A DNA stretch of 49,567 bases from Gemmatimonadota bacterium. GTDB lineage: Bacteria; Gemmatimonadota; Gemmatimonadetes; Palauibacterales; KS3-K002. This document shows, piece by piece, positions 483 through 28,071 of the stretch. The notes under the pieces were generated by a model. It did not search any database. It was not told the origin of the DNA and saw nothing but the letters and a program-made list of their open reading frames with translations. The DNA lies in assembly GCA_039589115.1 (NCBI GenBank), contig JBDHHZ010000011.1, positions 1-49,567 of the forward strand, given 5' to 3'. The position numbers and the translations under genes are program-made. The first letter of the stretch is position 1. Each line of letters begins with the position of its first letter.

Positions 483-2002
483 CCACTGCACCCAGCATTC
501 CCCCAGGAAAGGTCTACTTGGTCGGCGCTGGTCCCGGCCATCCCGGCTTGATCACGTTGCGCGGCGTAGAGTGCCTGAAGCAAGCCGACGTGGTGTTGTA
601 CGACTACCTCGTCAACCCGATCGTGGTCGAGCATGCGTCCACATCGGCGGAGTTGGTGGGCCTGGGACATCACAAGATGGGCCGTGCCCTCTCCCCGAAG
701 GAGATCACCGCCCGGATGCTCGAGGAAGCCAGAAAGGGCCGCAGCGTCGTGCGACTGAAGGGTGGCGATCCATCGGTGTTCGGCCGCGGCGCCGAAGAAG
801 AGGAAGCGCTGCGCGCGGCCGGTATCTCCTACGAAATCGTACCCGGAATCACGGCCGGCCTCGCCGTCGCCGCCTACTGCGAGATTCCCATAACGCACCA
901 CGAGGAAGCTTCCGCGGTCGCGATGATCACCGGCCGGGAGCGCGACCATAAGGACGAGTCACACCTGGGCTGTGGACTGGCCGATTTCCCCGGCACGCTC
1001 ATCTACTACATGGGTGTGCGGAGCGCCGGCGAGTGGAGCCGGGCTCTGATCGAGCAGGGCAAACCGCCCGACACCCCGGTCGCGATCGTCCGTTGGTGCT
1101 CGCGGGCGCAGCAGCAGATGGTGCGGTGCACGCTGAGCACGGTACCGGAAGTCATCGAAGAACAAGATGTTGCACCGCCGGCCGTGTGCGTGGTCGGCTC
1201 GGTGGTCGATCGCGCTCCGCAGCTCTCATGGTTCGCGGCCCGCCCGTTGGCCAGCGCCCGCGTCTTGGTGACGGGATCGCCGGGTACCGCCGAGCCGCTG
1301 CGCGACGGGTTGGGCGAGTTGGGAGCGGAAGTGATAACGAGGCCTGCGATTCGCGTCACCGATCCGCCCGACTGGGGACCGGTCGACGCGGCACTGGAGC
1401 GGCTCGACGAGTATGACTGGCTGGTGTTCTCCAGCGCGAACGGAGTGGACTACCTGTTTCGGCGGCTGCGTGACCGTGGCGGTGACGTGCGCCGGCTAGG
1501 GCAGGTGAAGCTGGCGGCCATCGGCTCCGGCACGGCGGAGCGGTTGGCCCGCTACAGCCTGCAAGCCGACCTGGTGCCCGAGCAGTTCGTCGCCGAGTCG
1601 CTGGCCCAAGCCCTTGTGGCCGAGGCCGGAGGCCGCCGCTTCCTGCTAGCCCGGACGAACCGTGGCCGCCAGGTGTTGCCCACCGAGCTCGAGAGAGCAG
1701 GCGGCCATGTCGACCAGATCGTCGTCTACGGCAGCGTCGACGTGGAGGAGCCCGATCCAGCCATGGCAGCCGCGCTGTCGTCTGGAGAGATCGATTGGGT
1801 GTCGGTCACGAGCTCCGCGATAGCGCATGCCCTCGTCCGGCTCTACGGCGAAACCCTGCGGCAGGCTCGACTCGCGAGCATCGGTCCGCTGACATCTGCT
1901 ACGTTGCGCGAGCTCGGTTACGAGCCGGCGGTGGAGGCATCGCCGCACACTACAGCCGGTTTGATCGATGCGATCGTGAGCGGCGGCCTCACGAGAGGCT
2001 GA
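479..2002 (+). CDS. cobA-hemD: Bifunctional uroporphyrinogen-III C-methyltransferase / uroporphyrinogen-III synthase (CobA-HemD fusion)
   Basis: The N-terminal half has SUMT motifs (VYLVGAGPGHPGLITLRG, KGGDPSVFGRG). The C-terminal half (from about RVLVTGSPG) has HemD-like repeats (WLVFSSANGV, KLAAIGSGTAERL, WVSVTSSAIA). Translationally coupled to cbiX. Confidence 0.85.
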   Translation: MTTAPSIPPGKVYLVGAGPGHPGLITLRGVECLKQADVVLYDYLVNPIVVEHASTSAELVGLGHHKMGRALSPKEITARMLEEARKGRSVVRLKGGDPSVFGRGAEEEEALRAAGISYEIVPGITAGLAVAAYCEIPITHHEEASAVAMITGRERDHKDESHLGCGLADFPGTLIYYMGVRSAGEWSRALIEQGKPPDTPVAIVRWCSRAQQQMVRCTLSTVPEVIEEQDVAPPAVCVVGSVVDRAPQLSWFAARPLASARVLVTGSPGTAEPLRDGLGELGAEVITRPAIRVTDPPDWGPVDAALERLDEYDWLVFSSANGVDYLFRRLRDRGGDVRRLGQVKLAAIGSGTAERLARYSLQADLVPEQFVAESLAQALVAEAGGRRFLLARTNRGRQVLPTELERAGGHVDQIVVYGSVDVEEPDPAMAAALSSGEIDWVSVTSSAIAHALVRLYGETLRQARLASIGPLTSATLRELGYEPAVEASPHTTAGLIDAIVSGGLTRG

Positions 2003-2029
2003 CGCCGGCCTTCCTCACCCTCCTGCGGG

Positions 2030-2704
2030 TCACCCGGAGAGCGCGCGCCGCACCAGCGCGCCAACGCTGGTGCGCTCGAGCGATCCGTCTTCGTAGAGAG
2101 CGACGGGCCCCTCGTCGGAAAGCAGTTCCGACCGGTCTGCCAGGATCACCGCCTGCCCCACCTGACCCAGACACCAGACGGCCGTGCCCCGGACCTGAGG
2201 GTCAGGATCGTCCAGCGCCGACGCCACTGCCGTGTGGAGTTCCGTGAAGTAGTCTCCCGCAAGAGAGCCGAGTCGTCCTATGGCCCACAGGGCATCGGCC
2301 CTGAAATGGTCCAGGTCTTCCTCGGCCATGTTCGGGATGAGGAAGATGACGATGGGGACGTAGTCGGCAAACAGCTTCGGTTCGTGGCGAACGATCTCCG
2401 CCATCGCCGCCGGGGCATGCCAGCAGATGCCGCCGGACTCCTCACTGATCAGCCAATACAGGCGCCGCAAGTGCTCCCGCACGTAGTCGGGATCGAATTC
2501 GGAGACGCGCCGAGCCGCCACTCCCAACGCCTCGACCGCTCGCCAACCGATCTGCGGGTCCGCATCGTAGGTGAGCGACACGAGGCTTGCCAGGACGCGC
2601 CGCTTCTCGGCGGCCAGCTCGGCGATTCGCTCGAATTGCCCCTCGGCGAGCGCCTCGCGCAGGATTGTCTTGATAGGCACGTGCGCGCCTAGTGCATCTC
2701 CCAC
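2030..2704 (-). CDS. HEAT/armadillo-repeat protein of unknown function, last gene of a DsrMK-like module
   Basis: ORF 2030..2704. Helical-repeat composition with HEAT-like repeats (IGWRAVEALGV, ADALWAIGRLG, DPDPQVRGTAVWCLGQVG). The start overlaps the stop of the upstream HdrD-like gene. No catalytic motif recognised. Confidence 0.5.
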   Translation of the reverse strand: MGDALGAHVPIKTILREALAEGQFERIAELAAEKRRVLASLVSLTYDADPQIGWRAVEALGVAARRVSEFDPDYVREHLRRLYWLISEESGGICWHAPAAMAEIVRHEPKLFADYVPIVIFLIPNMAEEDLDHFRADALWAIGRLGSLAGDYFTELHTAVASALDDPDPQVRGTAVWCLGQVGQAVILADRSELLSDEGPVALYEDGSLERTSVGALVRRALSG

Positions 2705-4299
2705 TTGATGAACGGCTCTTTGACATCCACCATCGCGTTGACGATCAGCTCCACGAGACCGCCGTAGGTGATGTTGCTCTTCTCCAGAACGTCATAGTAC
2801 TGCAGCAGGTCGCGAAGCTGACCCTTGCAGTTGGAGCACGGCGCGCAGAGGTACTTCTTGACCTCCGGTCCCGGCTGGTCAGCGAACGCGTCGAGGATCT
2901 GCTTCATTTTCACTCGGCTGCCGACACTTATGCGCCAGTCCGCGAAGTTGTTGGGCGACATTACGGCGAACCCGCTTCCGCCGCCACAGCAGTAGTTGTC
3001 CACCCCGTGCGGTGTCATCTCCCGGAACTGCGGGCACAAGTACCGCAGGATACGCCGTTGTGGTTCCACGATCCCCAGGTTGCGGACGATGTTGCACGGG
3101 TCGTGTAGAGTCACCGGGAAGTCGTTCTTGGACGGGTCGAACTCGATCTTCCCACTGAATACGATCTCCTCCAGCAGCGGCAGGCAGCTCTCACGGGCCA
3201 CAGCCAAGTCACCCGTAAGGACACGATCCGAGATGGTCATCAAGGCCTTGTGCTGATGCCCGCACTCGCCGGCGACGATCTTGTTCACCTTAAGCTTCTT
3301 GGCCGCCTCGGCGTGCTTGACTGTCACGCGAGCCAGCTGGACGTCATCGTAGAACAGGCCGTAGTTGACACCGTCATAGCCAAGCCCATCCGAGGATAAG
3401 GTCCAATCGATGCCCGCCGCGTTCAGGATGATGGCAAATGCCCCGGGATTCTCGGGCCAGGCCAGAATCTCCCCGGCGTTGTGGATCAGCAGGACGTCCG
3501 CGCCTTCCTTGTCCCACGGGGTCTCCACCTTTATGCCCGTCTCGTCTTCCATGTCCTCGTCGATGAACTCGATGTTGTCCTTCACGACCACGGCGTTCAT
3601 GCCCGTTGACGAGCCCACCTCAAGCTGGAGAACGGTACCCTTCTCGTGCAGCTCCTTGGGAGCCCAACCCAGCTCCTGACTGAACAGCTTCCGCAACTCG
3701 CGACTGATCAGGCCGTTGTCGAGCCCGATGGGACAGGCTTGAGCGCAGCGCCGGCACAGCGTGCAGCGGTAGCAGAGCTCGTACAGCCGAGTGATAGTGG
3801 TCCAGTTGAGCTCGATGTCACCGTGGGTGAACCTGGCGAACAGCTTTCCACCCGGCTTGGCGTACTTGGCGACCAGCCTCCGCAATACCTCGGCGCGGTA
3901 GGTCGGCCGGTAGATCTCCTTGCGGCCGCTCGCCGTGAAGACGGGACATGCGTCGTTACAACTCTGACAGTTCACGCAGTAGTCCAGCGAGAGCAGCAGC
4001 GGCTGCAAGAACGTCCAGTTGTTGTTCTTCTCGAGCAACTTCTTCAGGCCGGCACGGAACTTCTCGACGTATTCCTCTTCCTCGGCTGCGTCCGTCGGCT
4101 TGGGGATACTCAACCCGATGACGCCGTCCAGGTTGCAGACAAGGCGCTCCTTGGTCTCGGGACTGAGCTCCTTCCAGGCCGGCTCGTGCTCAGGGTTATC
4201 GTAGGGAGGTGGGAGGGGCGCGAGGTCCTCGGGTCCCACGGGACACAGCACCTCGTCTCCCCGCTTGCTGATGTCTATCACGCGTAGCTTGGTGCTCAC
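2689..4299 (-). CDS. HdrD/DsrK-like CCG-domain iron-sulfur oxidoreductase (module a)
   Basis: ORF 2689..4371 trimmed to the GTG at 4299 (GAGGAG upstream; GTGA overlap with the stop of the membrane gene). Two 4Fe-4S motifs (CVNCQSCNDACP, CYRCTLCRRCAQACP) are followed by CCG-type Cys-rich motifs (HDPCNIVRN, NYCCGGGSG, CAPCSNC). Confidence 0.8.
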   Translation of the reverse strand: MSTKLRVIDISKRGDEVLCPVGPEDLAPLPPPYDNPEHEPAWKELSPETKERLVCNLDGVIGLSIPKPTDAAEEEEYVEKFRAGLKKLLEKNNNWTFLQPLLLSLDYCVNCQSCNDACPVFTASGRKEIYRPTYRAEVLRRLVAKYAKPGGKLFARFTHGDIELNWTTITRLYELCYRCTLCRRCAQACPIGLDNGLISRELRKLFSQELGWAPKELHEKGTVLQLEVGSSTGMNAVVVKDNIEFIDEDMEDETGIKVETPWDKEGADVLLIHNAGEILAWPENPGAFAIILNAAGIDWTLSSDGLGYDGVNYGLFYDDVQLARVTVKHAEAAKKLKVNKIVAGECGHQHKALMTISDRVLTGDLAVARESCLPLLEEIVFSGKIEFDPSKNDFPVTLHDPCNIVRNLGIVEPQRRILRYLCPQFREMTPHGVDNYCCGGGSGFAVMSPNNFADWRISVGSRVKMKQILDAFADQPGPEVKKYLCAPCSNCKGQLRDLLQYYDVLEKSNITYGGLVELIVNAMVDVKEPFIKWEMH

Positions 4300-5210
4300 G
4301 TCTTCATCTCCTCGGTTGCAACATCCACCCAGTTCTTTCTTCCGTCGGACTTCACGTGGGGCCCTGCCCACGTCACGGGCTGATTCAGGAGCCGGACGGC
4401 CTCCCGCTCCAGCCGCCCGCCCGCAGCCAGCGGCTCATCGTCCCAGCGGACCTGGTGGTACGTGAAGTACTTCGCAACGAAGTGCATCATCCGGCTGAAG
4501 GGCAGATAGGCCAGAAACAGCAGGGCCAGCAGAACATGCACGGCCAGTATGCCAGGAAGCACGACTGAAAAATCAGCGGTCAGCAGAGCTACGGCGAAAC
4601 CCGTTACCTGCCCGGCAAAAGCCTGCGAGGCCGCAAGGGCTAGCGCGCCGCTAGCGAACACGGCTAGCAGGAGGACCAGGTTGAACAGGGCCGCCGGTGT
4701 CGTATAGGCCCGGAGCCGCGGATCGGCGAAACGGCTGCCGAGCAGTCCCAGCGCCCCGATGCCGCCCAGCGCGAAGCCAACTCCGGCGAGCAGCGATACA
4801 GCATCGCGCCAGGCGCCCGAGCCCGCGCTCTCCACTCCGGCCAACTGCAGCCCGCCACCGAGCAGCAGCACGGCAGCGGCCGCTATCAACACGTACATGC
4901 CGATATGGAACGGGAAAGAGAACCACCACAGTCGGCGATTGTGCTCCCACACACTCTTGAGGAACACGATTTCCTGGAACATGAAGAACAACTCGTTGAG
5001 CCGGTCCTTCTCACGCGGCTTCGTCCACCACTCGTACTCCTCGAGGTACGAGCCGCCGTAATGGCTCTTGCCCTTCTCGTGTGGCACCGGGGCGAGCTCC
5101 CAGCGGAGATGCACCGGAAGCCTCGCTATCCTCAAAGTTCTGAGCACGAACGCCACAATGAACACCGCCAACAACGCCCACGACATCACTATCAGTATGG
5201 ATCCGGACAT
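4296..5210 (-). CDS. NarI/DsrM-like integral membrane cytochrome b subunit (module a)
   Basis: ORF 4296..5210. Multiple hydrophobic helices and a C-terminal YLPFSRMMHF motif, as in NarI/DsrM/HdrE-type quinol-interacting subunits. The start directly abuts the stop of the MerR-like gene (TAAATG). Confidence 0.7.
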   Translation of the reverse strand: MSGSILIVMSWALLAVFIVAFVLRTLRIARLPVHLRWELAPVPHEKGKSHYGGSYLEEYEWWTKPREKDRLNELFFMFQEIVFLKSVWEHNRRLWWFSFPFHIGMYVLIAAAAVLLLGGGLQLAGVESAGSGAWRDAVSLLAGVGFALGGIGALGLLGSRFADPRLRAYTTPAALFNLVLLLAVFASGALALAASQAFAGQVTGFAVALLTADFSVVLPGILAVHVLLALLFLAYLPFSRMMHFVAKYFTYHQVRWDDEPLAAGGRLEREAVRLLNQPVTWAGPHVKSDGRKNWVDVATEEMKT

Positions 5211-5732
5211 TTAAGCCTCTTCCTCCGTCGAGTATCTCTTCCGCTGCATGAGCTCCTGGATGGCTGCACCCGCATCCTGCACGTCGTTCTCGTCATGCAG
5301 CAGCTGTTTGATGTCTTCGGTGCACAACGAACCGAATCGGTACACGGCGCAACCCCGGCACTCGTTCCCCTGCGGGGCGCAGTCGAGGCCCTTGATCATC
5401 CAGCACGGCCGCGTGCTGTCCTCATAGGCGGGACAGCTCCTGCGGGTCTCCGCCGTGCACGGGAGTAGATCCCAGCACGGCAGCAGCGCCTGCACCCTGT
5501 GAATTCCCTCTATGTTGAGTCCTAGGTCCTGGATCAGATGCTGGATGTTACGGACGCGGCTGATGTCCTCATGCGAGAACAGGCGGTGGCCCGAGGGAGT
5601 GCGGTGGGCGATGATGAGGCCCTCGTTCTCGTATTTCCGCACGGCGGAAACGGAAAGCCCCACCCGTTGTGCCAGAACGCCGATGGAGATTAGCGGGTCT
5701 TCGATTTCGTGATGCGCTGGTGCGTCGGGCAC
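5211..5732 (-). CDS. MerR-family HTH regulator with C-terminal 8-Cys domain
   Basis: The N-terminus ISIGVLAQRVGLSVSAVRKYENEGLI..HR..SGHRLF is a MerR-type HTH. The C-terminal stretch PCWDLLPCTAETRRSCPAYEDSTRPCWMIKGLDCAPQGNECRGCAVYRFGSLC holds 8 Cys in about 55 aa. Confidence 0.75.
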   Translation of the reverse strand: MPDAPAHHEIEDPLISIGVLAQRVGLSVSAVRKYENEGLIIAHRTPSGHRLFSHEDISRVRNIQHLIQDLGLNIEGIHRVQALLPCWDLLPCTAETRRSCPAYEDSTRPCWMIKGLDCAPQGNECRGCAVYRFGSLCTEDIKQLLHDENDVQDAGAAIQELMQRKRYSTEEEA

Positions 5733-7829: not shown

Positions 7830-9605
7830 TCAAGGCGTGCTCTCATCTCCGGCTGCTGACTCGTCGTGGGCCAGCTCCAGGATCCTGCGAACCGTGCTCA
7901 CGAGGGCCTCTTCGGTAACCGGCTTGTCCATATAGCCCTCGGGCTTCCTGACGGAGCGGTCATAGATCAGCTTGCGCAGCTCGGGTCTACCGGTGATCAC
8001 GCAGACCTTCAAGCTCTCAAGCTCCGGATCCTTGCGCAGAATCTCGTACACCTCGCCGACGTTTCTGCCGGGCATTTCGAGGTCGAGCGTCAACAGGTCT
8101 GGCTTCTCGCTACAGGCCATCGCCAGGGCCTCGTCGCCATTAGTGGCCCGCAGCACCGTGGCACCGTTATCCTCGAAGACCGTCGCCAGGTACTCGAGCT
8201 GATCGGGCTCGTCGTCGGCTACTAGCAATGTACGGCCGGCCAGCGGCAGCGCCTCGGCAACCACCTCTACCACCTCCTCGACTGGAATCGCCACCTTCGG
8301 CTCGATAACGAGGGCGTTCGCCACCAGGTTGACCAGCTGCGAAACCTCGATACCCAACTCGTAGTGCCTGATAACGTCAGTCAGGCCGTCGACACAGTTG
8401 TGACACGACGTGACGACGATCTCGGCGCCGGTCTCCTTCAGCTGGTTCGCCTTGATGACGCCCGACTTGAGCCGCCGCCCCGTGTACTCCGACATCGACA
8501 TAGCACCACCACCGCCCGTGCAACAGTAGTTCTCGGCGCGGTTCGGATACATCTCGCGAAAGTCGCTACACACCAACTGGAGCAGCTCGCGGGGCTCCTC
8601 GAACAGGCCGCAACTGCGGCCCATGTTGCAGGAGTCGTGATAAGTGACGGGCCTGGAGTTGCGGCTCTTGTCCACCTTGATCCGCCCTTCCTTGATGTAG
8701 CGGAGCATGGTGAAGATAGAACTCTCCATTACGAAAGGCACGTCGTACTTGGCCCAGTTGGGGCCCTCGCAGCGAGTCGATCGGTAGCCGTGGCCGCACT
8801 CCGAAATGACGAGCTGCTTTCCGCGAAGCTCGACCACCTTCTCGTACAGCCGCTGGGCGACGGAGCCGCCCAGATCGTCGTCGCCGGAGAACAGCCCGAA
8901 GTTGGTCATGTCCCAGCCCTCGCTGGCCATGGTCCACTTCTCTCCGGCCATGTGGAAGATCTTGGCCGCGTCCGCGATGGTGCGCGGGTCGTACTTCACC
9001 TCGCGCGGGTTGATGGAGTAGACCACATCGCAGTCGAACTGGTCGATCGGAATATCGGCCTCCGGGTCGTCCAGCTCGTCCTGCATCTCCTCCGCCATCC
9101 ACTCGAGCGTGTCTAGGTACTCCTCTTTGAGCACGCCCATCTGGTTGCCTATCTCCCACTGGTCCTTGCTGACGACGGCCACGCCTTCGGGCATGACCCC
9201 GACCGAGACAAGGAGACCCCGCGCCATCCGGTTGAACGTGGCCAAATCGACGCCCATCGGGCAGTTCAGGGAGCAACGCCGGCAATTGGTGCACTTGCCG
9301 AACACGGTATCCTTCAATTCCTCCAATTCCTCATCGGTCCAGACGCTGCCGGCCTTCACCCACCAGGGGAACACCCGACCCGTCCAATCGAAATGGCGCT
9401 TGAACAGCTTGCGGACCAGGTCGCCTTTGTATGCGGGGGCATAGGTCGGGTCGCCGGGATTGGCCAGGACGTAGTGACAGGACTCGGTACACAGGCCGCA
9501 GTGCACACAGGCCAGCAGCGAGCCCGCCATCTGCCGGTTCAGCTTCTGGCCCATCCGCTCGAGGACCTTCTCAGCCTTCAGGGATCTAGTATTCGCGTTG
9601 CTCAT
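7830..9605 (-). CDS. HdrD/DsrK-like CCG-domain iron-sulfur protein fused to a C-terminal receiver (REC) domain (module b)
   Basis: The N-terminal part has 2x4Fe-4S motifs (CVHCGLCTESCH, CTNCRRCSLNCPMG) and CCG motifs (YHDSCNMGRSCG, NYCCTGGGGA, TSCHNC). The last ~125 aa (about 7833-8210) form a complete REC: LLVADDEPD, LLTLDLEMPG, VCVITG, MDKPV. Confidence 0.8.
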   Translation of the reverse strand: MSNANTRSLKAEKVLERMGQKLNRQMAGSLLACVHCGLCTESCHYVLANPGDPTYAPAYKGDLVRKLFKRHFDWTGRVFPWWVKAGSVWTDEELEELKDTVFGKCTNCRRCSLNCPMGVDLATFNRMARGLLVSVGVMPEGVAVVSKDQWEIGNQMGVLKEEYLDTLEWMAEEMQDELDDPEADIPIDQFDCDVVYSINPREVKYDPRTIADAAKIFHMAGEKWTMASEGWDMTNFGLFSGDDDLGGSVAQRLYEKVVELRGKQLVISECGHGYRSTRCEGPNWAKYDVPFVMESSIFTMLRYIKEGRIKVDKSRNSRPVTYHDSCNMGRSCGLFEEPRELLQLVCSDFREMYPNRAENYCCTGGGGAMSMSEYTGRRLKSGVIKANQLKETGAEIVVTSCHNCVDGLTDVIRHYELGIEVSQLVNLVANALVIEPKVAIPVEEVVEVVAEALPLAGRTLLVADDEPDQLEYLATVFEDNGATVLRATNGDEALAMACSEKPDLLTLDLEMPGRNVGEVYEILRKDPELESLKVCVITGRPELRKLIYDRSVRKPEGYMDKPVTEEALVSTVRRILELAHDESAAGDESTP

Positions 9606-9644
9606 CGGGTCGTCTTCCCTTTCCGTCGGCGTGTGCTCGCCAAC

Positions 9645-10313
9645 CTATCCACGCCGGACCGGGTATACTCCCCGGTAACCCATGGTTTTGCCCAGGTAAT
9701 AGCGCGTGAAGGGGTAGTAGAGGTAGTGGGATATCTTGCTGAACGGCACATAGACCAGGAAGAAGGCCGTCAGGATGAAATAGCCCAGCAGGTGCCACTC
9801 GCCGCCGGCGATCTGGTTCGGCACCGCCAGCACCGCGAAGAAGAACCACGTCGTCAGCAGCACCAGCGAGAAGTAGTCGTCCGGCGAGCTGATCGCACGC
9901 ATATACGGACTGCCGACCCGCCGGATGATTCTGATCACCCCGACCAGGAAGGCCGCGCCGATCACGATCTGCAGGATCAGCACGACGGCTCGACTCTCGA
10001 GCAGGCCCGGCCAGTACGGGATGACGAACGATAGGGCGATGGCGGCGGTCACCCCGATGTGGAACGCCGCGAACTGGACATAGATCAAGTAGTGCCGTCG
10101 TGTGCTCTCCATCGCCCAGGGCATGGCGATATTCGCCCAAGAATACAGGATGCCCTTGGCCGGGGTGGTGTTCGGCGGACCGGTCGCCGCCTGGCGCTCG
10201 CCGCCGGCCTTGAAGCCGAAGAGCCATAGGATGCGGATCGTATAGACCAGGGCCATGAATCCCAGGGCGACCTCTTGCAGCGTATGCTCGGAGAAGTGTA
10301 GCAGCTCGCTCAT
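9645..10313 (-). CDS. NarI/DsrM-like integral membrane cytochrome b subunit (module b)
   Basis: Hydrophobic multi-helix protein ending in VYVPFSKISHYLYYPF, comparable to the YFPFSKLAHM of the canonical DsrM in this window. The start overlaps the macro-domain stop (ATGA). Confidence 0.7.
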   Translation of the reverse strand: MSELLHFSEHTLQEVALGFMALVYTIRILWLFGFKAGGERQAATGPPNTTPAKGILYSWANIAMPWAMESTRRHYLIYVQFAAFHIGVTAAIALSFVIPYWPGLLESRAVVLILQIVIGAAFLVGVIRIIRRVGSPYMRAISSPDDYFSLVLLTTWFFFAVLAVPNQIAGGEWHLLGYFILTAFFLVYVPFSKISHYLYYPFTRYYLGKTMGYRGVYPVRRG

Positions 10314-10852
10314 GGCGTATTCTCTATTTGGGCCTTGAAAGCGTCGTATTGGCTAGTGTCCAACACGCAGATGACGACTTCCTTGATTGCGGTCTCACCC
10401 TCCAAGTGACCCCTGATCACTTCGAGCATCACCCGGGCACAAAGACCCGGCGCGATCCCGTAATACCCCGCACCCATAGCCGGAAAGGCGATCCGCCCGA
10501 CAGCTATCTCCTCGGCGCGTTTCAGGGAGTTGAGAACCGTCGTTCGCAGCTTGCCTTGCGTATCCTCTTCCTGAAACCGGGGGCCGACTGCGTGGATGAT
10601 GTGCTGGGCTTTGAGGTTCCCTGCCGCGGAGACCACAGCCTCGCCGTTTGCGACCGGGCCCAGCTGCTCCAGTTCCTTCTGGACCGTGGGCCCGCCTCGC
10701 ACGGAGATCGCCCCTCCGAATCCCGTACCGAGAGCCAGATCGGGCTGGGCGTAGAACACGAAGGCGTCAACGTCGAGGTCTGTGATGTCGTCTTTGATGA
10801 GGCGTAAGACGCTCTGATTTATCTGTAAGCCCTCCTCAACTGCCTTGGTCAC
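10310..10852 (-). CDS. Macro-domain protein (ADP-ribose binding / de-ADP-ribosylating family)
   Basis: ORF 10310..10891 trimmed to the GTG at 10852, which follows a strong SD (GGGAGGG, 4-nt spacer). Macro-like motifs: LIKDDITDLDVDAFV, GFGGAI, IIHAVGPRF, IAFPAMGAGYYG. Confidence 0.7.
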   Translation of the reverse strand: MTKAVEEGLQINQSVLRLIKDDITDLDVDAFVFYAQPDLALGTGFGGAISVRGGPTVQKELEQLGPVANGEAVVSAAGNLKAQHIIHAVGPRFQEEDTQGKLRTTVLNSLKRAEEIAVGRIAFPAMGAGYYGIAPGLCARVMLEVIRGHLEGETAIKEVVICVLDTSQYDAFKAQIENTP

Positions 10853-10968
10853 TGCGCCCTCCCTTTTGCTTTGCGGAGTCCAACCTCGCACCGTATGCCT
10901 TCGAGACCCTCCGACTTCCCCGAATCACCTTCGAAACTCTCCGACCGGCGTTCTCCGGGTTCCACATC

Positions 10969-11616
10969 TCATCCATAGAACGGCAAGCCCGCCACCCGGC
11001 ACGCCCCCCGCCGATACCCGGCCGGAAATAGCTCTCGCAGCTCATCGAGGCTCAGGTCGTTGGCGGAGCAAGCCTCGTAGACTGTCGGGAGCATTCGGTT
11101 GGCGACGTAGTAGTCGCGCAAGTAACGCACGATCTGCAGGTGCCTCTCCGTCGTCACGACCGGCGGTTCCCTCTGCGACATGGCCAGCTCGACGAAGTCT
11201 TCATCCCACTCCTCGAAGTTCTCGAGGAATCCCAATTCGTCCAGTCCATAGCGCGGCTTTGCGGGAGGCGCAGTCTCGTACGTGAGCCAGTAGTTCGTCT
11301 CCCACATGAACTTGTAGTTGATGCCGGCGACCTTGCAGGCGCCCCGATGGTATCCGGTAGGAAACAGCGAGCGCAGCTCCGAGAGCCGCATGTGATTGTC
11401 CGCGCACGCCATGACGAGCACCGGCACGGTGTTCTCGTCGAGGAACTTGTGCCGCAGATAATTGATGAGCTGCCAGTGCCGTTCCGTGAGCCCCGACGCA
11501 ACCCCCACCAGCTTCGCCATTCCTTCGGCGAAGTCCTCTTCCCACTGCTCCGGCGGGTCCAAGAACCCGTAGGCGTCCAGCTGGTAGGTCTTGCCCTTGA
11601 ACGCTACTGAACTCAT
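10969..11616 (-). CDS. Tandem (two-domain) DsrC/TusE-like protein lacking the C-terminal CysA
   Basis: Two DsrC-family repeats in one 215-aa ORF. Repeat 1 ends ...LFPTGYHRGACKVAGINYKF and repeat 2 ends ...LFPAGYRRGACRVAGLPFYG-stop. Both keep the GAC(K/R)VAG position (CysB) but lack the terminal PKPTGCV arm of the canonical DsrC at 27754..28071. Confidence 0.8.
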   Translation of the reverse strand: MSSVAFKGKTYQLDAYGFLDPPEQWEEDFAEGMAKLVGVASGLTERHWQLINYLRHKFLDENTVPVLVMACADNHMRLSELRSLFPTGYHRGACKVAGINYKFMWETNYWLTYETAPPAKPRYGLDELGFLENFEEWDEDFVELAMSQREPPVVTTERHLQIVRYLRDYYVANRMLPTVYEACSANDLSLDELRELFPAGYRRGACRVAGLPFYG

Positions 11617-11692: not shown

Positions 11693-12484
11693 CTATGCAG
11701 CGTCGCCCGCCGCTCTGCGACTGGCGCCCGCAACGCTATCGACTAGCTGTTCGATCTGCTCTGCCGTCAGAGGGGCACTCAGGGTGGGCGCGGAGAGTTG
11801 CCCTACGACCTCTTCGTCCACCGCACGACGTGCCACAAAGACCTTCACCCCGGGAATTCGGTCATCCCGGATGATGGACTCCAACAGGCTGCCGTCGCTC
11901 ACCTCAGGCAGCTCGCTATCCAGCACCACCACGGCGGGGCGAAACGTCCCGATCAGCGTGGAGCTTTCATACCCAGATCGGGCGAACTGCAGGGAGACCC
12001 TGTCCGCGTCCGTGTCTTTCTCGAGCCGGCGGGTCAATGCCTCGTCCCGAGTGATCACCAAAACGGTCATCGCCATGCCGTGACAGGCCCTATAAAACGG
12101 GCAGTCCAAGCAATCAGTCTTGCAGAAGTCATGCCTGTGCCCGGCCTCCCTCCCCAGTTCGGCCAGCCTGTAGCAGTACTGTGCCCGGGCCTGGTAGACC
12201 AGGCAATTCCGGCAGCTTTCGGGTGGAGCGCCCGGCTGCCCGAAGTACTCCCAACAGCGCTGTGGGACTCCATCCCCGTTCCCTCGATCGGCGGTCGCGC
12301 CAACAGGATCCTCGCCGTTCGAGTCGCAAAGACCCAGGGCAGTACAGGCCTCTCGAGAGACCCGGTAGTGTCCACCGGCGGTGCGGGTCGCCGGCAGCCT
12401 GCCCTTCTTGATCCACTTCAGCACGGCGTCTGGTGTGACGCCGCAGAGCTTGGCCACCTCGCCTGTACTGAGCATAGAACCCAT
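11693..12484 (-). CDS. Excisionase/MerR-superfamily HTH regulator with central 8-Cys domain and C-terminal receiver-like domain (paralogue 1)
   Basis: ORF 11693..12553 trimmed to ATG 12484 (MGSMLSTGEVAKLCGVTPDAVLKWIKKGRL..GGHYRV); the trim is supported by the putative promoter at 12544-12572. Cys block RCWEYF..SCRNCLVYQ..YCY..FCKTDCLDCPFYRAC. Receiver-like tail VLVITRDE..VVVLDSE. Confidence 0.7.
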   Translation of the reverse strand: MGSMLSTGEVAKLCGVTPDAVLKWIKKGRLPATRTAGGHYRVSREACTALGLCDSNGEDPVGATADRGNGDGVPQRCWEYFGQPGAPPESCRNCLVYQARAQYCYRLAELGREAGHRHDFCKTDCLDCPFYRACHGMAMTVLVITRDEALTRRLEKDTDADRVSLQFARSGYESSTLIGTFRPAVVVLDSELPEVSDGSLLESIIRDDRIPGVKVFVARRAVDEEVVGQLSAPTLSAPLTAEQIEQLVDSVAGASRRAAGDAA

Positions 12485-12543
12485 AATGCAAATTCGATGG
12501 TTTATGGATTTTCTTGACATCTCGCATAAATCGCCTGCTGAGA

Positions 12544-12572
12544 ATTCTACCAAAATTTGGCGGTTCTGTCAA
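12544..12572 (-). promoter_or_regulatory. Putative sigma70-type promoter for regulator paralogue 1 (TTGACA-N17-TAGAAT)
   Basis: The minus strand reads TTGACA (12572-12567), a 17-nt spacer, then TAGAAT (12549-12544). This sits about 60 bp upstream of the ATG at 12484. The -35 is embedded in the 9-bp repeat TTCTTGACA, which recurs inverted at 12511-12519. Confidence 0.4.
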
Positions 12573-12697: not shown

Positions 12698-12726
12698 TTG
12701 ACTCCTGAGAGCCGCGTATGTATTTT
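12698..12726 (+). promoter_or_regulatory. Putative sigma70-type promoter for regulator paralogue 2 (TTGACT-N17-TATTTT)
   Basis: TTGACT at 12698-12703, a 17-nt spacer, TATTTT at 12721-12726, about 55 bp upstream of the ATG at 12781. Preceded by TTTTCTTG (12686-12693), a motif shared with the divergent promoter. Confidence 0.35.
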
Positions 12727-12780
12727 ATGCAATCAGGGTGGTCGGGAAATGCGGTACCCCATAAAAGCCATACCTGCGCC

Positions 12781-13590
12781 ATGAAGCAGCAGAAAGACGG
12801 TACCTGGCTAACCACCGGGCAAGCTGCCAGGCTTTGCTCGGTCACTTCCGATACTGTCCTCAAGTGGATAAAGAAGGGGTCGCTCAAGGCCGTGCGCACG
12901 GCGGGCGGCCACTATCGCATCAGACGCCAGGAGCTCGCACCCCTCCTCACGTTAGGCCGGACCTCGCGGATTTTCCCGGACAGGACGAGCAGCGCGCCGC
13001 AGCAGTTGCGGTGTTGGGAGTACTTCAGCCGCGGAGGCGCCATCAGGGAAGAATGCGAGGCGTGCGCGGTCTACCGCGCGCGGGCTTCGCGGTGCTTCCG
13101 GATGGCGACGATGGGACCTGACATCGGCCACGCTCGTCAATTCTGCCAGACATCCTGCGACGATTGTGTCTACTTCCAGCGGCTGAGCGGACAGCCGACA
13201 AAGGTGCTCGTTGTCACGTCGGACTCTGATCTCGTTCAGCGGCTGAAGAGTCATGAGTCAGAGGGGATGGAGTTGCGCTTCGCGCGGAACGCCTACGAAG
13301 CCTCGGCTGTGGTGCAGGCTTTCCTGCCGGGCTTCGCGGTGGTCGACCAGGACGCGTTTCCGGGCGGTGACTACGGACTGCTGGAGAACCTGGCGAACGA
13401 CCCCCGCCTTCCGGGTCTGAAGATCATCGTAGCGGTGCAGCGCGGTGAGGATCAGCGACTGGGCAACTTACAGGATGGACATTTCGTATCTCGAGTGATT
13501 GAAAAGCCGTTCGGTTCGGAGGAGATCGCGGCCGTGATCGACGGTTTTCCGGTGGGATCGGTTGAGATGGAGAGATTGGGCAACGTCTGA
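12781..13590 (+). CDS. Excisionase/MerR-superfamily HTH regulator with central 7-Cys domain and C-terminal receiver-like domain (paralogue 2)
   Basis: ORF 12718..13590 trimmed to ATG 12781 (MKQQKDGTWLTTGQAARLCSVTSDTVLKWIKKGSL..GGHYRI). Cys block RCWEYF..ECEACAVYR..RCF..FCQTSCDDCVYFQ. Receiver-like tail VLVVTSDSD..FAVVDQD..EKPF. Confidence 0.7.
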   Translation: MKQQKDGTWLTTGQAARLCSVTSDTVLKWIKKGSLKAVRTAGGHYRIRRQELAPLLTLGRTSRIFPDRTSSAPQQLRCWEYFSRGGAIREECEACAVYRARASRCFRMATMGPDIGHARQFCQTSCDDCVYFQRLSGQPTKVLVVTSDSDLVQRLKSHESEGMELRFARNAYEASAVVQAFLPGFAVVDQDAFPGGDYGLLENLANDPRLPGLKIIVAVQRGEDQRLGNLQDGHFVSRVIEKPFGSEEIAAVIDGFPVGSVEMERLGNV

Positions 13591-13604
13591 CAACGGGGGT
13601 AACA

Positions 13605-13922
13605 GTGAGCCCAGTGAATCGGGAAGTTTTAGAAGCCAGTAGCGATGAGGACGGGTTCCTCAAGGCTATGGCGAACTGGGATCGAGCGACGGCCGAGACC
13701 CTCGCCGAGCTGCACAATATCGGTGAGCTCACGGACGAGCACTGGATGGTGATCGAGTTCGTGCAAGAGTATTACGCGACCTACGGCACAGGGCCGCCGG
13801 TGGTGAAGGTGCACAAGGAGACCGGGCTGACGTCGGAAGAGATCTGCCAGCTGTTCCCTTGCGGCATGGTGAAGGGGGCATACCGGCTAGCCGGACTCCC
13901 ACGCCCGCCCGGCTGCGCCTGA
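13605..13922 (+). CDS. DsrC/TusE-like protein with CysA only (CysB replaced by Tyr, extra Cys upstream)
   Basis: 105-aa DsrC-family ORF with a GTG start. The C-terminus LFPCGMVKGAYRLAGLPRPPGCA compares with the canonical LFPSGPAKGACKVAGLPKPTGCV at 27754..28071. Confidence 0.8.
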   Translation: MSPVNREVLEASSDEDGFLKAMANWDRATAETLAELHNIGELTDEHWMVIEFVQEYYATYGTGPPVVKVHKETGLTSEEICQLFPCGMVKGAYRLAGLPRPPGCA

Positions 13923-13961
13923 GCGCCGAGTGGTAGTGACGCCACTCTAGAAAGGAACGAC

Positions 13962-14681
13962 ATGGACTTCGTGAGTTTGATGTTGGGCGGAATTCTGCCC
14001 TACGTAGCGGTCGCGGTGTTCATCGTGGCCATGGCCTACCGCATCTATACGTGGAAGAGACTCGCGGCGCCCTCGATGACGCTGTTCCCGGCGCCGGCCG
14101 ATGAGAAAGCCAACAGGCGAAACGTGGTCAAAGAGGCCCTGCTGTTCCGGAGCTTGTTCGGAGGCGACCGGCTGCTGTGGGGATTCGCTTGGATGTTCCA
14201 CGCGGTGTTGGCTTTGATCGTTCTGGGGCACTTTCGCGTCTTCACGAACGTGGACGGGACCCTGATGACGATGGGGATGAGCGAAGGGGCAATCCAGGCC
14301 ATGTCCGGCGGCGCGGGTGGAGCAGCCGGTGTGGTGATACTGGTCGCGACGATTCTGTTGTTAGTTCGGAGGTTGGCGCTGCCGCGCGTCCGCGAGGTCA
14401 CGGGTTCGGCCGACTATCTCGCCCTGCTGCTGATCGCGGCCATCATCGTGACCGGCAACATGATGCGGTTCGGGGCCGAGCACTTCGACCTAACCCTGAC
14501 GCGGCAGTACTTCGCCAGTCTGGCGACCTTCGGGGGTGTCATGGATGAGGCCGCCTTGCAGAACAACGTGTTCGTAGTCCACATGAGCCTGGCGTTCCTG
14601 CTGATCATGATCATCCCATTCAGCAAGATCCTCCATTTCGGCGGGATCTTCTTCACGCATCAGCTCATCCGGAAGCATTGA
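13962..14681 (+). CDS. NarI/DsrM-like integral membrane cytochrome b subunit (module c)
   Basis: Hydrophobic multi-helix protein with a C-terminal IIPFSKILHFGGIFF motif as in DsrM/NarI-type subunits. Directly followed by an HdrD-like gene. Confidence 0.7.
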   Translation: MDFVSLMLGGILPYVAVAVFIVAMAYRIYTWKRLAAPSMTLFPAPADEKANRRNVVKEALLFRSLFGGDRLLWGFAWMFHAVLALIVLGHFRVFTNVDGTLMTMGMSEGAIQAMSGGAGGAAGVVILVATILLLVRRLALPRVREVTGSADYLALLLIAAIIVTGNMMRFGAEHFDLTLTRQYFASLATFGGVMDEAALQNNVFVVHMSLAFLLIMIIPFSKILHFGGIFFTHQLIRKH

Positions 14682-14694
14682 GGCGGAGGCGAGG

Positions 14695-16026
14695 ATGTCC
14701 GAAAACAATGTGAAAGAGCAAGTTGTCGACTCTATCAATGCCATCAAAGATGGCCCCCGTGCGATGCGGATGTATATGGAGATGTGCGTCAAGTGCGGGA
14801 CGTGCGCATCGGTCTGCCCGGTGTACTACGGCAAGAGCGAGAAGCGCTACAACCCAGCGGAGCGCACCGACCTGATCCGCCGCATCTACCGCAAGTACAA
14901 CACGCTCAGTGGGAAGTTGTTCGGGAGGTTCGCCGGAGCGGAGGACTTCGACCCGGCGGACATCGATGACTGGCAGACGATCTTCTACGAGTGCACCGGT
15001 TGCCGCCGCTGCGCCATGTTCTGCCCTTTCGGTATCGATCACTCGGTCATCACGCGGAAGGGCCGCGCGATCCTGGACAAGGTCGGTATGACGCCTGAGA
15101 CGATGGCGAGAGTGGTTCAGGTCTCGCTAGAGACGGGGAACACGGACGGCGCCGGGGAGGCGGCGTTCCGGGCAGCGATCGACTTCCTCGAAGAGGAGAT
15201 GAACGACGAGCACGGCATCGACATCAAGATTCCGATCGACGCGAAAGGCGCGGAGTACTTCTATGTCCCACCCTCCGGCGATGTGCTTGTCAACCCGGAG
15301 GCCACGATGGGCGTCGCCAAGGTGTTCCACGCCCTTGGGATGGCGGACCGCTGGACCATGAGCTCCAAGTGCTTCGACGGGGCCAACTACGGGCTGTTCA
15401 CCGGTAACGACGGCGACATGAAGGCCGATAACAAGCTCTATGTGGAGGAAGCCAAGGAGCTAGGCACCAAGGTCATGTTGATGGGCGAGTGCGGCCACGC
15501 GTATCGGATCATGAAGATGATGATGGAGAAGACCGGCTGGTGGGGTGAGCTGCCCTTCGAGATCGTCAACTGCATGGAATGGACCGCCGATCACATCAGG
15601 AACGGCCAGCTCGAGTTCGACAAGTCCCAGAACCAACAGCCCGTCACCTACCACGACCCGTGCAACTTCGGACGTTCTTGTGGCATCACCGAGGAGCCGC
15701 GGGTCATTCTAGAGGCCTCTTGCGCCGACTTCCGAGAGATGCATCCCAACCGCGGCGAGAACTGGTGCTGCGGCGGCGGCGGTGGGCTGTCGGCGATGGA
15801 CGATATCATAGAGTTCCGGATGGAGATCTCCGGTACGAAGAAGCTGGAGCAGATCCGCGAGACCGGGGCCACCTATGTGTCCACCGCCTGCTCCAACTGC
15901 AAGCGCCAGCTGACGCAGTTGCTCGAGCATCACGAGGAGCAGATCGAGGTCGGGGGCGTTCACGACATGCTCTCCCGCTCGATTCTCATCAACGGGAAGG
16001 CCGCGGAAAGGGAGGAGTACGTGTAG
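14695..16026 (+). CDS. HdrD/DsrK-like CCG-domain iron-sulfur oxidoreductase (module c)
   Basis: 2x4Fe-4S motifs (CVKCGTCASVCP, CTGCRRCAMFCPFG) plus CCG motifs (YHDPCNFGRSCG, NWCCGGGGG, TACSNCKRQL). Confidence 0.8.
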   Translation: MSENNVKEQVVDSINAIKDGPRAMRMYMEMCVKCGTCASVCPVYYGKSEKRYNPAERTDLIRRIYRKYNTLSGKLFGRFAGAEDFDPADIDDWQTIFYECTGCRRCAMFCPFGIDHSVITRKGRAILDKVGMTPETMARVVQVSLETGNTDGAGEAAFRAAIDFLEEEMNDEHGIDIKIPIDAKGAEYFYVPPSGDVLVNPEATMGVAKVFHALGMADRWTMSSKCFDGANYGLFTGNDGDMKADNKLYVEEAKELGTKVMLMGECGHAYRIMKMMMEKTGWWGELPFEIVNCMEWTADHIRNGQLEFDKSQNQQPVTYHDPCNFGRSCGITEEPRVILEASCADFREMHPNRGENWCCGGGGGLSAMDDIIEFRMEISGTKKLEQIRETGATYVSTACSNCKRQLTQLLEHHEEQIEVGGVHDMLSRSILINGKAAEREEYV

Positions 16027-27753: not shown

Positions 27754-28071
27754 TCACACACATCCGGTCGGCTTCGGCAGGCCGGCCACCTTGCAGGCCC
27801 CCTTTGCCGGCCCACTCGGGAACAGATCGTAGATCTCCTTCAGCTTGAAGCCCGTCTGCTTGCAGAGCTTGCGGATCATTGGCGCCATGCTGTACTCGAG
27901 GTAATACTCACGCAGGTAGTTGACGACCTTCCAATGGTCATCGGTCAGTTCGTCGACGCCTTCCGTCTTTGCCAGATCTGTGGCAACGCCCTGGTCCCAA
28001 GCATCGGGATCCTGGATGAACCCGTCTTCGTCGATCTCGATCTGCTTCCCGCCTAGTTCCTTCGTCTCCAT
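27754..28071 (-). CDS. dsrC: DsrC, canonical (both C-terminal arm cysteines present)
   Basis: 105 aa ending LFPSGPAKGACKVAGLPKPTGCV. CysB and the penultimate CysA are separated by 10 residues, as in functional DsrC. Confidence 0.95.
   Translation of the reverse strand: METKELGGKQIEIDEDGFIQDPDAWDQGVATDLAKTEGVDELTDDHWKVVNYLREYYLEYSMAPMIRKLCKQTGFKLKEIYDLFPSGPAKGACKVAGLPKPTGCV

Follow-up and report, generated by a model that had tools for sequence, protein, structure and literature searches.

A tandem DsrC-like protein without the catalytic arm is encoded beside DsrM/DsrK paralogues in several bacterial phyla

Introduction

Why would a bacterium that encodes a canonical DsrC also keep a gene for two fused DsrC bodies, neither of which carries DsrC's C-terminal arm? 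The question is raised by a 49,567-nucleotide stretch of a Gemmatimonadota genome (assembly GCA_039589115.1, contig JBDHHZ010000011.1; the whole stretch is called the window here), in which one open reading frame (ORF) at 10969-11616 encodes what we call the tandem protein. Dissimilatory sulfur metabolism has DsrC as its central sulfur carrier, and in the canonical form of this protein CysB lies in the last helix and precedes CysA by ten residues. TusE, which relays sulfur for tRNA 2-thiouridine, has CysA but not CysB (E. coli TusE Cys108).

The arm of canonical DsrC has the motif AGLPKPTG.C. (DiSCo, PMC8477390). In the cryo-electron microscopy (cryo-EM) study of DsrMKJOP with DsrC, the docked body of DsrC has its trisulfide 22 Å from the cluster, and CysA on the extended arm, more than 17 Å from CysB, reaches the catalytic pocket of DsrK and is still more than 8 Å from the buried cluster (bioRxiv 10.64898/2026.08.25.746951). 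CysA is essential, whereas loss of CysB, which is not on the arm, only slows growth (same source); a previous model-made reading of the window from its letters alone, here the sequence-only reading, had overstated the case in saying that DsrC function depends on both arm cysteines, as slow growth does without CysB. DsrC-like proteins without CysA have been named RspA, for 'regulatory sulfur-related protein' (PMC9371685; family naming in PMC8477390), and the former source presumes them to be regulatory and not catalytic.

Here we describe the tandem protein, its relatives and their gene neighborhoods. We tentatively favor the reading, held as somewhat short of probable, that it is a non-catalytic DsrC pseudo-dimer of the RspA type serving, through its thiols, as a sensor or adaptor that links HdrD-like redox modules in the membrane to transcription regulators. 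We favor a sensor or adaptor because of the association with DsrK-type proteins, the conserved surface cysteines and the recurrent adjacency and fusion to transcription factors.

Results

One minus-strand gene encodes two DsrC bodies without an arm

The gene has its ATG at 11616 and its stop codon at 10969-10971. The sequence-only reading had the coordinates and the length of 215 amino acids (aa) of this single ORF right; the strand is minus, and the plus-strand reading of 10969-11616 is full of stop codons. The parts of the gene are the following.

10969..11616, minus strand: tandem armless DsrC gene (215 aa plus stop); ORF list, two Pfam DsrC matches, G+C content at third codon positions (GC3) and AlphaFold2 (AF2) model
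11317..11616, minus strand: DsrC domain 1, aa 1-100, with N-terminal beta-hairpin, C71 and CysB (C94); Pfam stretch 6-99, PDB alignment to 1ji8 and secondary structure of the AF2 model
11251..11316, minus strand: aromatic-rich helical extension after CysB, and linker, aa 101-122, YKFMWETNYWLTYETAPPAKPR; conservation and AF2 helices
10972..11250, minus strand: DsrC domain 2, aa 123-215, with C183, CysB (C206) and the end AGLPFYG; residues 122-212 aligned to 1sau, 2xsj, 3or1 and 2v4j, and a local hidden Markov model domain at 113-215

The two repeats of the DsrC/TusE family that had been noticed in the letters are each recognized by Pfam DsrC (PF04358; two matches, 128.3 bits against a cutoff of 24.9, E 2e-37) and by TIGR03342 (two matches, 103.9 bits against a cutoff of 53.5), and they are seen directly when the two halves are aligned to each other and to the canonical DsrC of the window. 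After CysB of domain 1 the sequence runs on as AGINYKFMWETNYWLTYETAPP ('AGI' followed by NYKFMWETNYWLTYE; AGINYKFMWE...), and domain 2 stops at AGLPFYG, in which AGLP, the start of the arm, is still present. The PKPTGC arm is missing from both domains, as the sequence-only reading had it, and neither has a cysteine after CysB. The canonical signature GPAKGAC is replaced by GY[HR]RGAC. Judged by its sequence, the extension of aa 101-122 stands in place of the arm of domain 1; its residues N100, F103, M104, N108, W110, T112, Y113 and E114 are invariant or nearly so in close homologues. The GC3 of the gene, 0.83, is similar to that of the adjoining genes.

The AF2 model, built on an alignment of 59 sequences (predicted local distance difference test score, pLDDT, 90.1; predicted template modeling score, pTM, 0.77), consists of two DsrC bodies and two short helices, 101-107 and 109-113, which are formed by the conserved aromatic segment after CysB of domain 1. 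The pLDDT of these helices is about 88, that of residues 111-120 about 69. The pTM suggests that the two domains form a fixed unit and are not arranged as beads on a string. All significant Foldseek matches of the model are DsrC chains (top matches 3or2_C, 3or1_C, 2v4j_C, 2xsj_C, 1sau and 1ji8) with template modeling (TM) scores per target of 0.70-0.84, and with 33-40% identity at TM scores of 0.82-0.84; the non-DsrC matches, to sigma factors and LexA, were insignificant (E > 0.1). In the model, the DsrC fold of a beta-hairpin and an orthogonal helical bundle is present.

Three cysteines are near universal and a fourth marks a subfamily

The tandem protein has four cysteines, C71, C94, C183 and C206. 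Their codons are given here with their conservation in close homologues (n = 121) and in the 212 tandem proteins of all subfamilies that we compared.

11404..11406, minus strand: codon of C71 (tgc), helix-3 cysteine of domain 1; 120/121 homologues, 205/212 tandem proteins
11335..11337, minus strand: codon of C94, CysB equivalent of domain 1; aligned to CysB of Pyrobaculum aerophilum DsrC, invariant in the close homologues
11068..11070, minus strand: codon of C183, helix-3 cysteine of domain 2; 119/121 homologues, aligned with Archaeoglobus fulgidus DsrC Cys77 'vkhCkke'
10999..11001, minus strand: codon of C206, CysB equivalent of domain 2; aligned to CysB in four solved DsrC chains, Val in the sister subfamily

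The cysteines that the sequence-only reading had taken for CysB are indeed homologous to it. In phmmer alignments to solved DsrC proteins, C206 falls on CysB of A. fulgidus (Cys103, 'aCriaglp'), D. norvegicum and D. gigas, and C94 on the cysteine of 'GACKVAG' in P. aerophilum DsrC. The same reading had counted one cysteine per domain and so missed C71 (in 'VMACADN') and C183 (in 'YEACSAN'), one helix-3 cysteine in each domain, which are conserved about as well as CysB (kept in 121/121 close homologues in domain 1 and in 120/121 in domain 2).

Across the 212 tandem proteins, the helix-3 cysteine is kept by 205 in domain 1 and by 206 in domain 2, and CysB by 205 in domain 1 and by 124 in domain 2. 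On these counts per position the near-universal set is one of three cysteines, and the alignment indicates that the fourth, CysB of domain 2, marks the subfamily of the window protein, here called four-Cys. The sister subfamily, with Val in place of CysB in domain 2 (72/212), is here called Val-type. An arm-like C-terminus is present in a single tandem protein and absent from the other 211. The CysB site of domain 2 covaries with the residue that precedes it by four positions, in that Arg goes with Cys (121) and His with Val (71), which could be a swap of a ligand or of a residue that tunes the pKa; at the corresponding position of domain 1, CysB is found with His, Leu or Gln.

Two relatives have lost CysB otherwise. 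The protein of locus L036, encoded directly after dsrK, lacks it in both domains and keeps both helix-3 cysteines, and P0125 has lost it in domain 1, has kept it in domain 2 and still adjoins DsrC2-DsrM-DsrK.

The tandem architecture is widespread

A search for other tandem DsrC proteins, which the sequence-only reading had proposed, gave 620 matches in a collection of 5.8 billion proteins. All 120 listed matches are two-domain proteins of 200-236 aa with 59-92% identity, so that the architecture of about 215 aa counts at least 120 clusters at 90% identity. The taxa include Gemmatimonadota (Longimicrobiales), Zixibacteria, Latescibacteria, Elusimicrobiota and Syntrophales, and the genomes nearest to the window protein are Gemmatimonadota metagenome-assembled genomes, with about 90% amino acid identity. 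An exhaustive phmmer search across 1.84 billion representatives returned 594 proteins at E <= 0.001, among them about 30 full-length tandem clusters with identities down to 35%. Two separate genes or an assembly artifact, which would have undone the tandem assignment, are ruled out: the same single ORF is found in all 120 homologue clusters listed, on contigs of up to 4.1 Mb. Arrays of more than two domains exist as well, since a metagenomic representative of 541 aa (P0162) has five DsrC-like domains in a row (Pfam 412 bits in five stretches).

In a neighbor-joining tree of the separated domains, all first domains group together, and the second domains of the four-Cys proteins form a group apart from canonical DsrC and from the small DsrC2 described below. 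This single tree without bootstrap, which is indicative only, suggests one old duplication.

Most of the matches listed carry no label other than 'TusE/DsrC/DsvC family' or 'tRNA 2-thiouridine synthesizing protein E', the name that the Joint Genome Institute (JGI) gives to most homologues. The latter label is wrong, because the tandem protein scores far below the cutoff of the TusE equivalog model NF008562 (60.7 bits against 191) and lacks the catalytic cysteine of TusE. NCBIfam contains no model specific to the tandem protein, the generic TIGR03342 being its sole match, and full-text literature searches for tandem, fused or duplicated DsrC found nothing. The DsrC fold, the DsrC family and the notion of regulatory DsrC relatives without CysA are already known. 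We found nowhere described the obligate two-domain form with its own cysteine signature, the cross-phylum operon MerR-DsrC2-DsrM-DsrK-tandem or the Rrf2 fusions.

DsrM/DsrK paralogues are the conserved partners of the tandem gene

Upstream of the tandem gene in the window lie a regulator gene on the same strand and, divergent from it, an operon that encodes a small DsrC (DsrC2) and paralogues of DsrM and DsrK.

11693..12553, minus strand: MerR/HTH_17-type regulator 'MerR1', directly upstream of the tandem gene, with Cys-rich middle and receiver-like C-terminus; Pfam HTH_17 and MerR, weak PmrA receiver match at 162-251
12718..13590, plus strand: 'MerR2', paralogous MerR/HTH_17 regulator, first gene of the divergent operon; Pfam HTH_17 and MerR
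13605..13922, plus strand: small DsrC2 of 105 aa with arm and CysA, Tyr for CysB and an extra Cys in ICxLFPCG; Pfam DsrC, tail conserved in 10 loci
13962..14681, plus strand: DsrM/NarI-like membrane cytochrome b paralogue; Pfam Nitrate_red_gam, best NCBIfam match DsrM with 100 bits, under the cutoff
14695..16026, plus strand: DsrK paralogue, HdrD-like, with CCG domain; NCBIfam DsrK 368.6 bits against a cutoff of 400

We compared the nine four-Cys lineages with enough flanking sequence (the window with L001-5, L006/7, L008, L012, L013, L014, L015, L016/17 and L018/19). In all nine, down to 40% identity, no more than about 2.5 kb separates the DsrM/DsrK paralogue from the tandem gene, and the DsrK paralogue is 72-91% identical (tblastn) at every one of these loci. 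The tandem gene is usually immediately 3' of dsrK, DsrC2 adjoins in 8/9 lineages, and a MerR/HTH_17 gene is inside the locus in 5/9, usually as the first gene of the operon. Of the partners of the tandem gene, the DsrK paralogue is hence conserved best, and the conserved set is DsrM2/DsrK2 (13962-16026), usually together with DsrC2 and a MerR-type regulator. This arrangement comes from Zixibacteria, Latescibacteria, a 4.1-Mb JGI contig, a 102-kb contig, Syntrophales and the relative with 40% identity. In a tenth lineage (L105; 38% identity), on a 2.8-kb contig too short to show DsrMK, the tandem gene is divergent from a MerR/HTH_17 gene and a small DsrC gene. Near the DsrM-DsrK-tandem genes of three operons (L008, L036 and L076) there is no small DsrC. 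An orthologue of MerR1 adjoins the tandem gene in L001-L007 and L013, and orthologues of MerR2 head the DsrC2-DsrM-DsrK-tandem operon in L014, L015 and L016. MerR1 and MerR2 share a related CWE...C..C..VY motif that no model recognizes.

Apart from the dsrMK and dsrC paralogues, no dsr genes were seen within 8 kb of the tandem orthologues in Zixibacteria, Latescibacteria, Elusimicrobiota and other loci. DsrEFH and TusBCD are not among the conserved neighbors of the tandem gene, in a survey that included no search aimed at either. Against PDB chains, the DsrK paralogue gave no DsrK match, and its sole match was a distant Fe-S reductase, 9ojn.

The C-terminus of DsrC2 reads ICxLFPCG[MV]xxGAYRLAGLPRPxGC across ten loci, so that CysA and the arm are kept, CysB is Tyr in 10/10 and two further cysteines lie upstream. 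In the neighbor-joining tree DsrC2 groups with canonical DsrC-type sequences, apart from both tandem domains. It is a distinct subfamily of small DsrC proteins that occurs in several phyla outside dsrAB clusters, and its gene (in the window and as orthologues in L001-L016) is always directly 5' of the DsrM/DsrK paralogue. By the mechanism seen in the DsrMKJOP-DsrC cryo-EM study, no member of the operon other than DsrC2 would be able to reach the active site of a DsrK-type protein.

Tandem genes are also linked to Rrf2 regulators

Transcription factors of a second family accompany the tandem protein in other lineages. In P0134 and P0136, encoded on contigs of 5.4 Mb and 121 kb, an N-terminal Rrf2-family regulator is fused to a tandem armless DsrC. 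Both are stand-alone genes (L024 7001-8095 and L023 7001-8110), and their host genomes are rich in proteins sorted by the type IX secretion system (T9SS; Por_Secre_tail). For the context of the Val-type subfamily, 80 metagenomic loci were fetched; a separate Rrf2 gene is directly 5' of the tandem gene in L092 and L103, L076 has the operon Rrf2-DsrM-DsrK-tandem, and the commonest neighbors are regulators of the sigma-54 type. L036 has the order DsrM-DsrK-tandem, and in the Syntrophales locus L008 an Rrf2 gene is convergent with the tandem gene. In the latter, a histidine kinase gene (1885-3954) upstream of DsrM/DsrK/tandem encodes a 'two-CW' Cys-rich domain (NF045718, 36.5 bits against a cutoff of 35); a third MerR-like regulator of the window, at 5211-5732 on the minus strand, matches the same model weakly (17.6 bits).

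The receiver-fused module of the window is a lineage-specific addition

Downstream of the tandem gene in the window are genes for a Macro-domain protein and a second redox module. The canonical DsrC is encoded elsewhere on the same strand.

10310..10891, minus strand: Macro-domain protein, downstream of the tandem gene; Pfam Macro
9645..10313, minus strand: HmcE/TmcC-like membrane protein; weak NCBIfam HmcE and TmcC matches
7830..9605, minus strand: HmcF/TmcB-like HdrD-type Fe-S protein fused to a receiver (REC) domain; Pfam CCG, Fer4_8 and Response_reg, NCBIfam HmcF 332 bits, TmcB 311, DsrK 250
27754..28071, minus strand: canonical DsrC of the same genome with CysB and CysA, ending ...GACKVAGLPKPTGCV; Pfam DsrC, in the dsrAB / dsrMK..P / sat / aprA cluster

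The order on the minus strand is MerR1, tandem DsrC, Macro, HmcE/TmcC-like, HmcF/TmcB-like::REC, histidine kinase and receiver, and on the divergent plus strand MerR2, DsrC2, DsrM-like cytochrome b and DsrK paralogue. The locus is rich in signaling genes (two MerR-like regulators, HmcF::REC, a histidine kinase and a REC protein). A terminator scan found none between MerR1, the tandem gene and the Macro gene; the promoter and terminator scan as a whole was uninformative.

The sequence-only reading had called the adjacent REC module DsrMK-like and had suggested that the tandem protein could be its dedicated substrate or redox reporter. Its best scores are to HmcF/TmcB and HmcE/TmcC, not to DsrK and DsrM, and its REC domain resembles the DVU0259 family. 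The distribution of the Macro-HmcE-HmcF::REC block is limited to some Gemmatimonadota, the Elusimicrobiota locus L013 and the Val-type locus L040, an unassigned metagenome contig (window 7830-10891, minus strand; L013 4975-7976; L040 222-5708). In L007 no HmcEF-like::REC module follows the tandem gene, and the module is also lacking in Zixibacteria, Latescibacteria and the other minimal-operon loci, in which the DsrM/DsrK paralogue is conserved instead. Because it is missing from most tandem-gene loci, the module is a lineage-specific addition. A PAS histidine kinase and a receiver directly follow the block in the window and in L040, and in L013 they lie further downstream, beyond a second DsrMK-like module. 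The Macro domain, of a type that binds or hydrolyzes ADP-ribose, stands beside a redox module.

The minus strand at 16286-38433 carries a complete sat / aprBA / qmo-like / dsrC / dsrMK..P / dsrAB / dsrL-like / dsrN-like cluster, with dsrA, dsrB, DsrK (711 bits), DsrM, DsrP, aprA and sat above the NCBIfam cutoffs. It includes the canonical DsrC, just where the sequence-only reading had placed it, and also a DsrN-like amidase, a GltD-like NAD(P)-binding protein and an HdrA-like protein. The distance from dsrAB to the tandem gene is about 8-10 kb, in the window and in L003, and the tandem gene sits in a separate regulator-rich block beside the dissimilatory sulfur cluster. Besides the true DsrMKJOP, the window has three HdrD-like membrane modules, at 2689-5732 (minus), 7830-10313 (minus) and 12718-16026 (plus). 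Each has a NarI/HmcE-like membrane partner and a Cys-rich HTH regulator (helix-turn-helix; MerR/HTH_17 type) adjoining it or in the same block. The third DsrK-like protein, encoded at 2689-4371, has 560 aa and scores 332 bits on the DsrK model.

Discussion

What can a DsrC without an arm do? Each half of the tandem protein shares the fold and the family of DsrC (PDB 1SAU and 2V4J chain C), CysB is in the same helix, the last one, and the gene is encoded near HdrD-like (DsrK-type) membrane modules, as is that of DsrC. Unlike DsrC, the tandem protein has two bodies per chain, neither a flexible C-terminal arm nor CysA, an extra invariant helix-3 cysteine per body and an aromatic helical extension after CysB of domain 1, and its orthologues occur in loci without dsrAB. 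Lacking the arm and CysA, it would have no access to the active sites of DsrAB or DsrK by the known mechanism, and for the same reason our analysis indicates that it cannot serve sulfite reduction as a sulfur-carrying substrate in the way of DsrC. On this point we agree with the sequence-only reading, which had denied it the canonical chemistry; CysA is essential in the DsrMKJOP-DsrC work.

Among known relatives, the tandem protein is like RspA in that it has no CysA and no arm motif and is encoded near sulfur and redox genes. RspA is, as we take it, a single DsrC-like domain, whereas the tandem protein has two in a fixed arrangement, with its own linker, four conserved cysteines and specific operon partners. 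To our knowledge, the function of RspA itself has never been shown and no mechanism has been assigned since the naming. TusE belongs to the same superfamily and has CysA as its sulfur acceptor, whereas the tandem protein keeps CysB without CysA. DsrC2 is of the same family and operon and is co-conserved with the tandem protein across phyla; unlike it, DsrC2 is a single domain with arm and CysA and has Tyr at the CysB site. The Rrf2 fusions P0134 and P0136 have a two-domain armless DsrC module with the helix-3 cysteine in both domains and CysB in domain 1, and they differ by their N-terminal winged-helix DNA-binding domain, their Val-type domain 2 and their location away from DsrMK.

As a sensor or adaptor, the tandem protein would dock in the manner of DsrC onto the HdrD-like cytoplasmic subunit of membrane modules linked to quinone, namely, the DsrM/DsrK paralogue (13962-16026) and, in the lineage of the window, also the HmcEF-like::REC module. 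Its conserved cysteines (the helix-3 cysteine and CysB in domain 1, the helix-3 cysteine with or without CysB in domain 2) would then change their redox or persulfide state, probably via DsrC2, the CysA of which may reach both the DsrK pocket and the surface thiols of its partner. The state would be passed on to a transcription regulator, of the MerR/HTH_17 type in the window and of the Rrf2 family in other lineages. The 'redox reporter' of the sequence-only reading fits the regulatory context found here. Three observations weigh against a sensor or adaptor. The near-invariant cysteines are also compatible with a carrier or catalytic role, and the operon encodes a full quinone-linked reductase, which seems costly for a pure sensor. 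In addition, the Rrf2 links are mostly found in the Val-type subfamily, which rarely adjoins DsrMK (of 41 Val-type loci with 5 kb or more, 4 contain a DsrK-like gene, against all nine four-Cys lineages with enough flank); hence, a regulatory role of the four-Cys subfamily is an extrapolation.

The main rival, which we consider unlikely and yet take seriously, is that the tandem protein and DsrC2 are co-substrates that have divided the two cysteines of DsrC between them. The tandem protein would provide CysB in trans, the arm of DsrC2 would lie in the groove left by the truncated tail of domain 2 and/or domain 1, and the DsrM/DsrK paralogue would reduce or form an intermolecular disulfide or trisulfide with quinol or quinone, such that the pair would be a sulfur or electron carrier of a DsrAB-independent pathway. 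The losses are complementary (CysA with Tyr for CysB in DsrC2 in 10/10 loci, CysB twice without CysA in the tandem protein), both genes accompany dsrMK-like genes in 8/9 lineages, a small DsrC is also encoded beside the L105 gene, P0125 keeps CysB in domain 2 only and still stands by DsrC2-DsrM-DsrK, and domain 2 retains AGLP, the arm start. However, the extra conserved cysteines of DsrC2 in ICxLFPCG could replace CysB in cis, L008, L036 and L076 manage without a small DsrC nearby, and the L036 protein follows dsrK directly and has CysB in neither domain. Moreover, the conserved operon encodes no sulfur-donating enzyme (DsrAB, DsrEFH or rhodanese).

The same division of cysteines might also serve signaling, in a 'split DsrC' relay that we regard as speculative and less likely still. 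Here, the arm of DsrC2 would alternate between the active site of the DsrK paralogue and the vacant arm groove of the tandem protein, forming a CysA-S(n)-Cys bridge, and the tandem protein would swap between the membrane subunit of DsrK or HmcF type and the transcription factor (MerR/HTH_17 or Rrf2). The status of the quinone pool or of sulfane sulfur could in this way control genes by sequestering the regulator at the membrane.

The sequence-only reading had proposed a disulfide or persulfide bridge between the two CysB residues in a protein that serves as dedicated substrate or reporter of the HdrD-like::REC module. Both CysB residues are invariant in the four-Cys subfamily, the pTM of the model predicts a defined arrangement of the domains, and the Macro/HmcE/HmcF::REC block is near the tandem gene in three lineages (window, L013 and L040). 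As a core function the bridge is quite improbable because the Val-type subfamily (72/212) has lost CysB of domain 2 and the DsrK-adjacent L036 protein has lost both. The REC-fused module is missing from L007, L008, L012 and L014-L019, and the proposal leaves aside C71 and C183, which are equally conserved.

A direct role in DNA binding, with the HTH-like motif of each body used as a single-chain dimer, is very unlikely. The motif is reportedly present in DsrC bodies and RspA is said to have been assumed regulatory, both in work of Venceslau et al. from 2014. PMC9371685 also assumes RspA to be regulatory, the tandem layout resembles a covalent dimer, and there are weak Foldseek matches to sigma factors and LexA. 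These matches are not significant (E > 0.1), the protein is acidic, with a net charge of about -9 and a pI of 5.1 (4.5 for domain 2), and a second DNA-binding function would be redundant in relatives fused to or paired with dedicated DNA-binding proteins (Rrf2 or MerR).

Least probable of all is a metal or Fe-S cluster bound within or between the domains by three or four conserved cysteines and His90, in an electron-transfer or structural subunit of a DsrK-like complex: three cysteines are near universal in the tandem proteins (205, 205 and 206 of 212) and the change from Arg with Cys (121) to His with Val (71) in domain 2 could be a ligand swap, but the spacing of the cysteines fits no known cluster motif, Pfam and NCBIfam give no Fe-S signature, AF2 gives ordinary DsrC bodies without a cofactor, and we know of no DsrC-family member that binds a cluster.

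For metagenomic surveys, the consequence is that tandem genes are widely misannotated as 'tRNA 2-thiouridine synthesizing protein E'. Since paralogues of DsrC, DsrM and DsrK occur in loci without other dsr genes, they should not be counted as markers of sulfate reduction. If the relay of DsrC2 and the tandem protein proved true, it would give the RspA branch a first defined function and be a new type of one-protein-thiol signaling chain that is independent of DsrAB. We have delineated a large family of tandem armless DsrC proteins that spans several phyla, with a fixed cysteine signature, the operon MerR/HTH_17-DsrC2-DsrM-DsrK-tandem and Rrf2 fusions. With the sensor or adaptor reading that we tentatively favor, this family provides a testable hypothesis for crosstalk between HdrD-like membrane modules and gene regulation.

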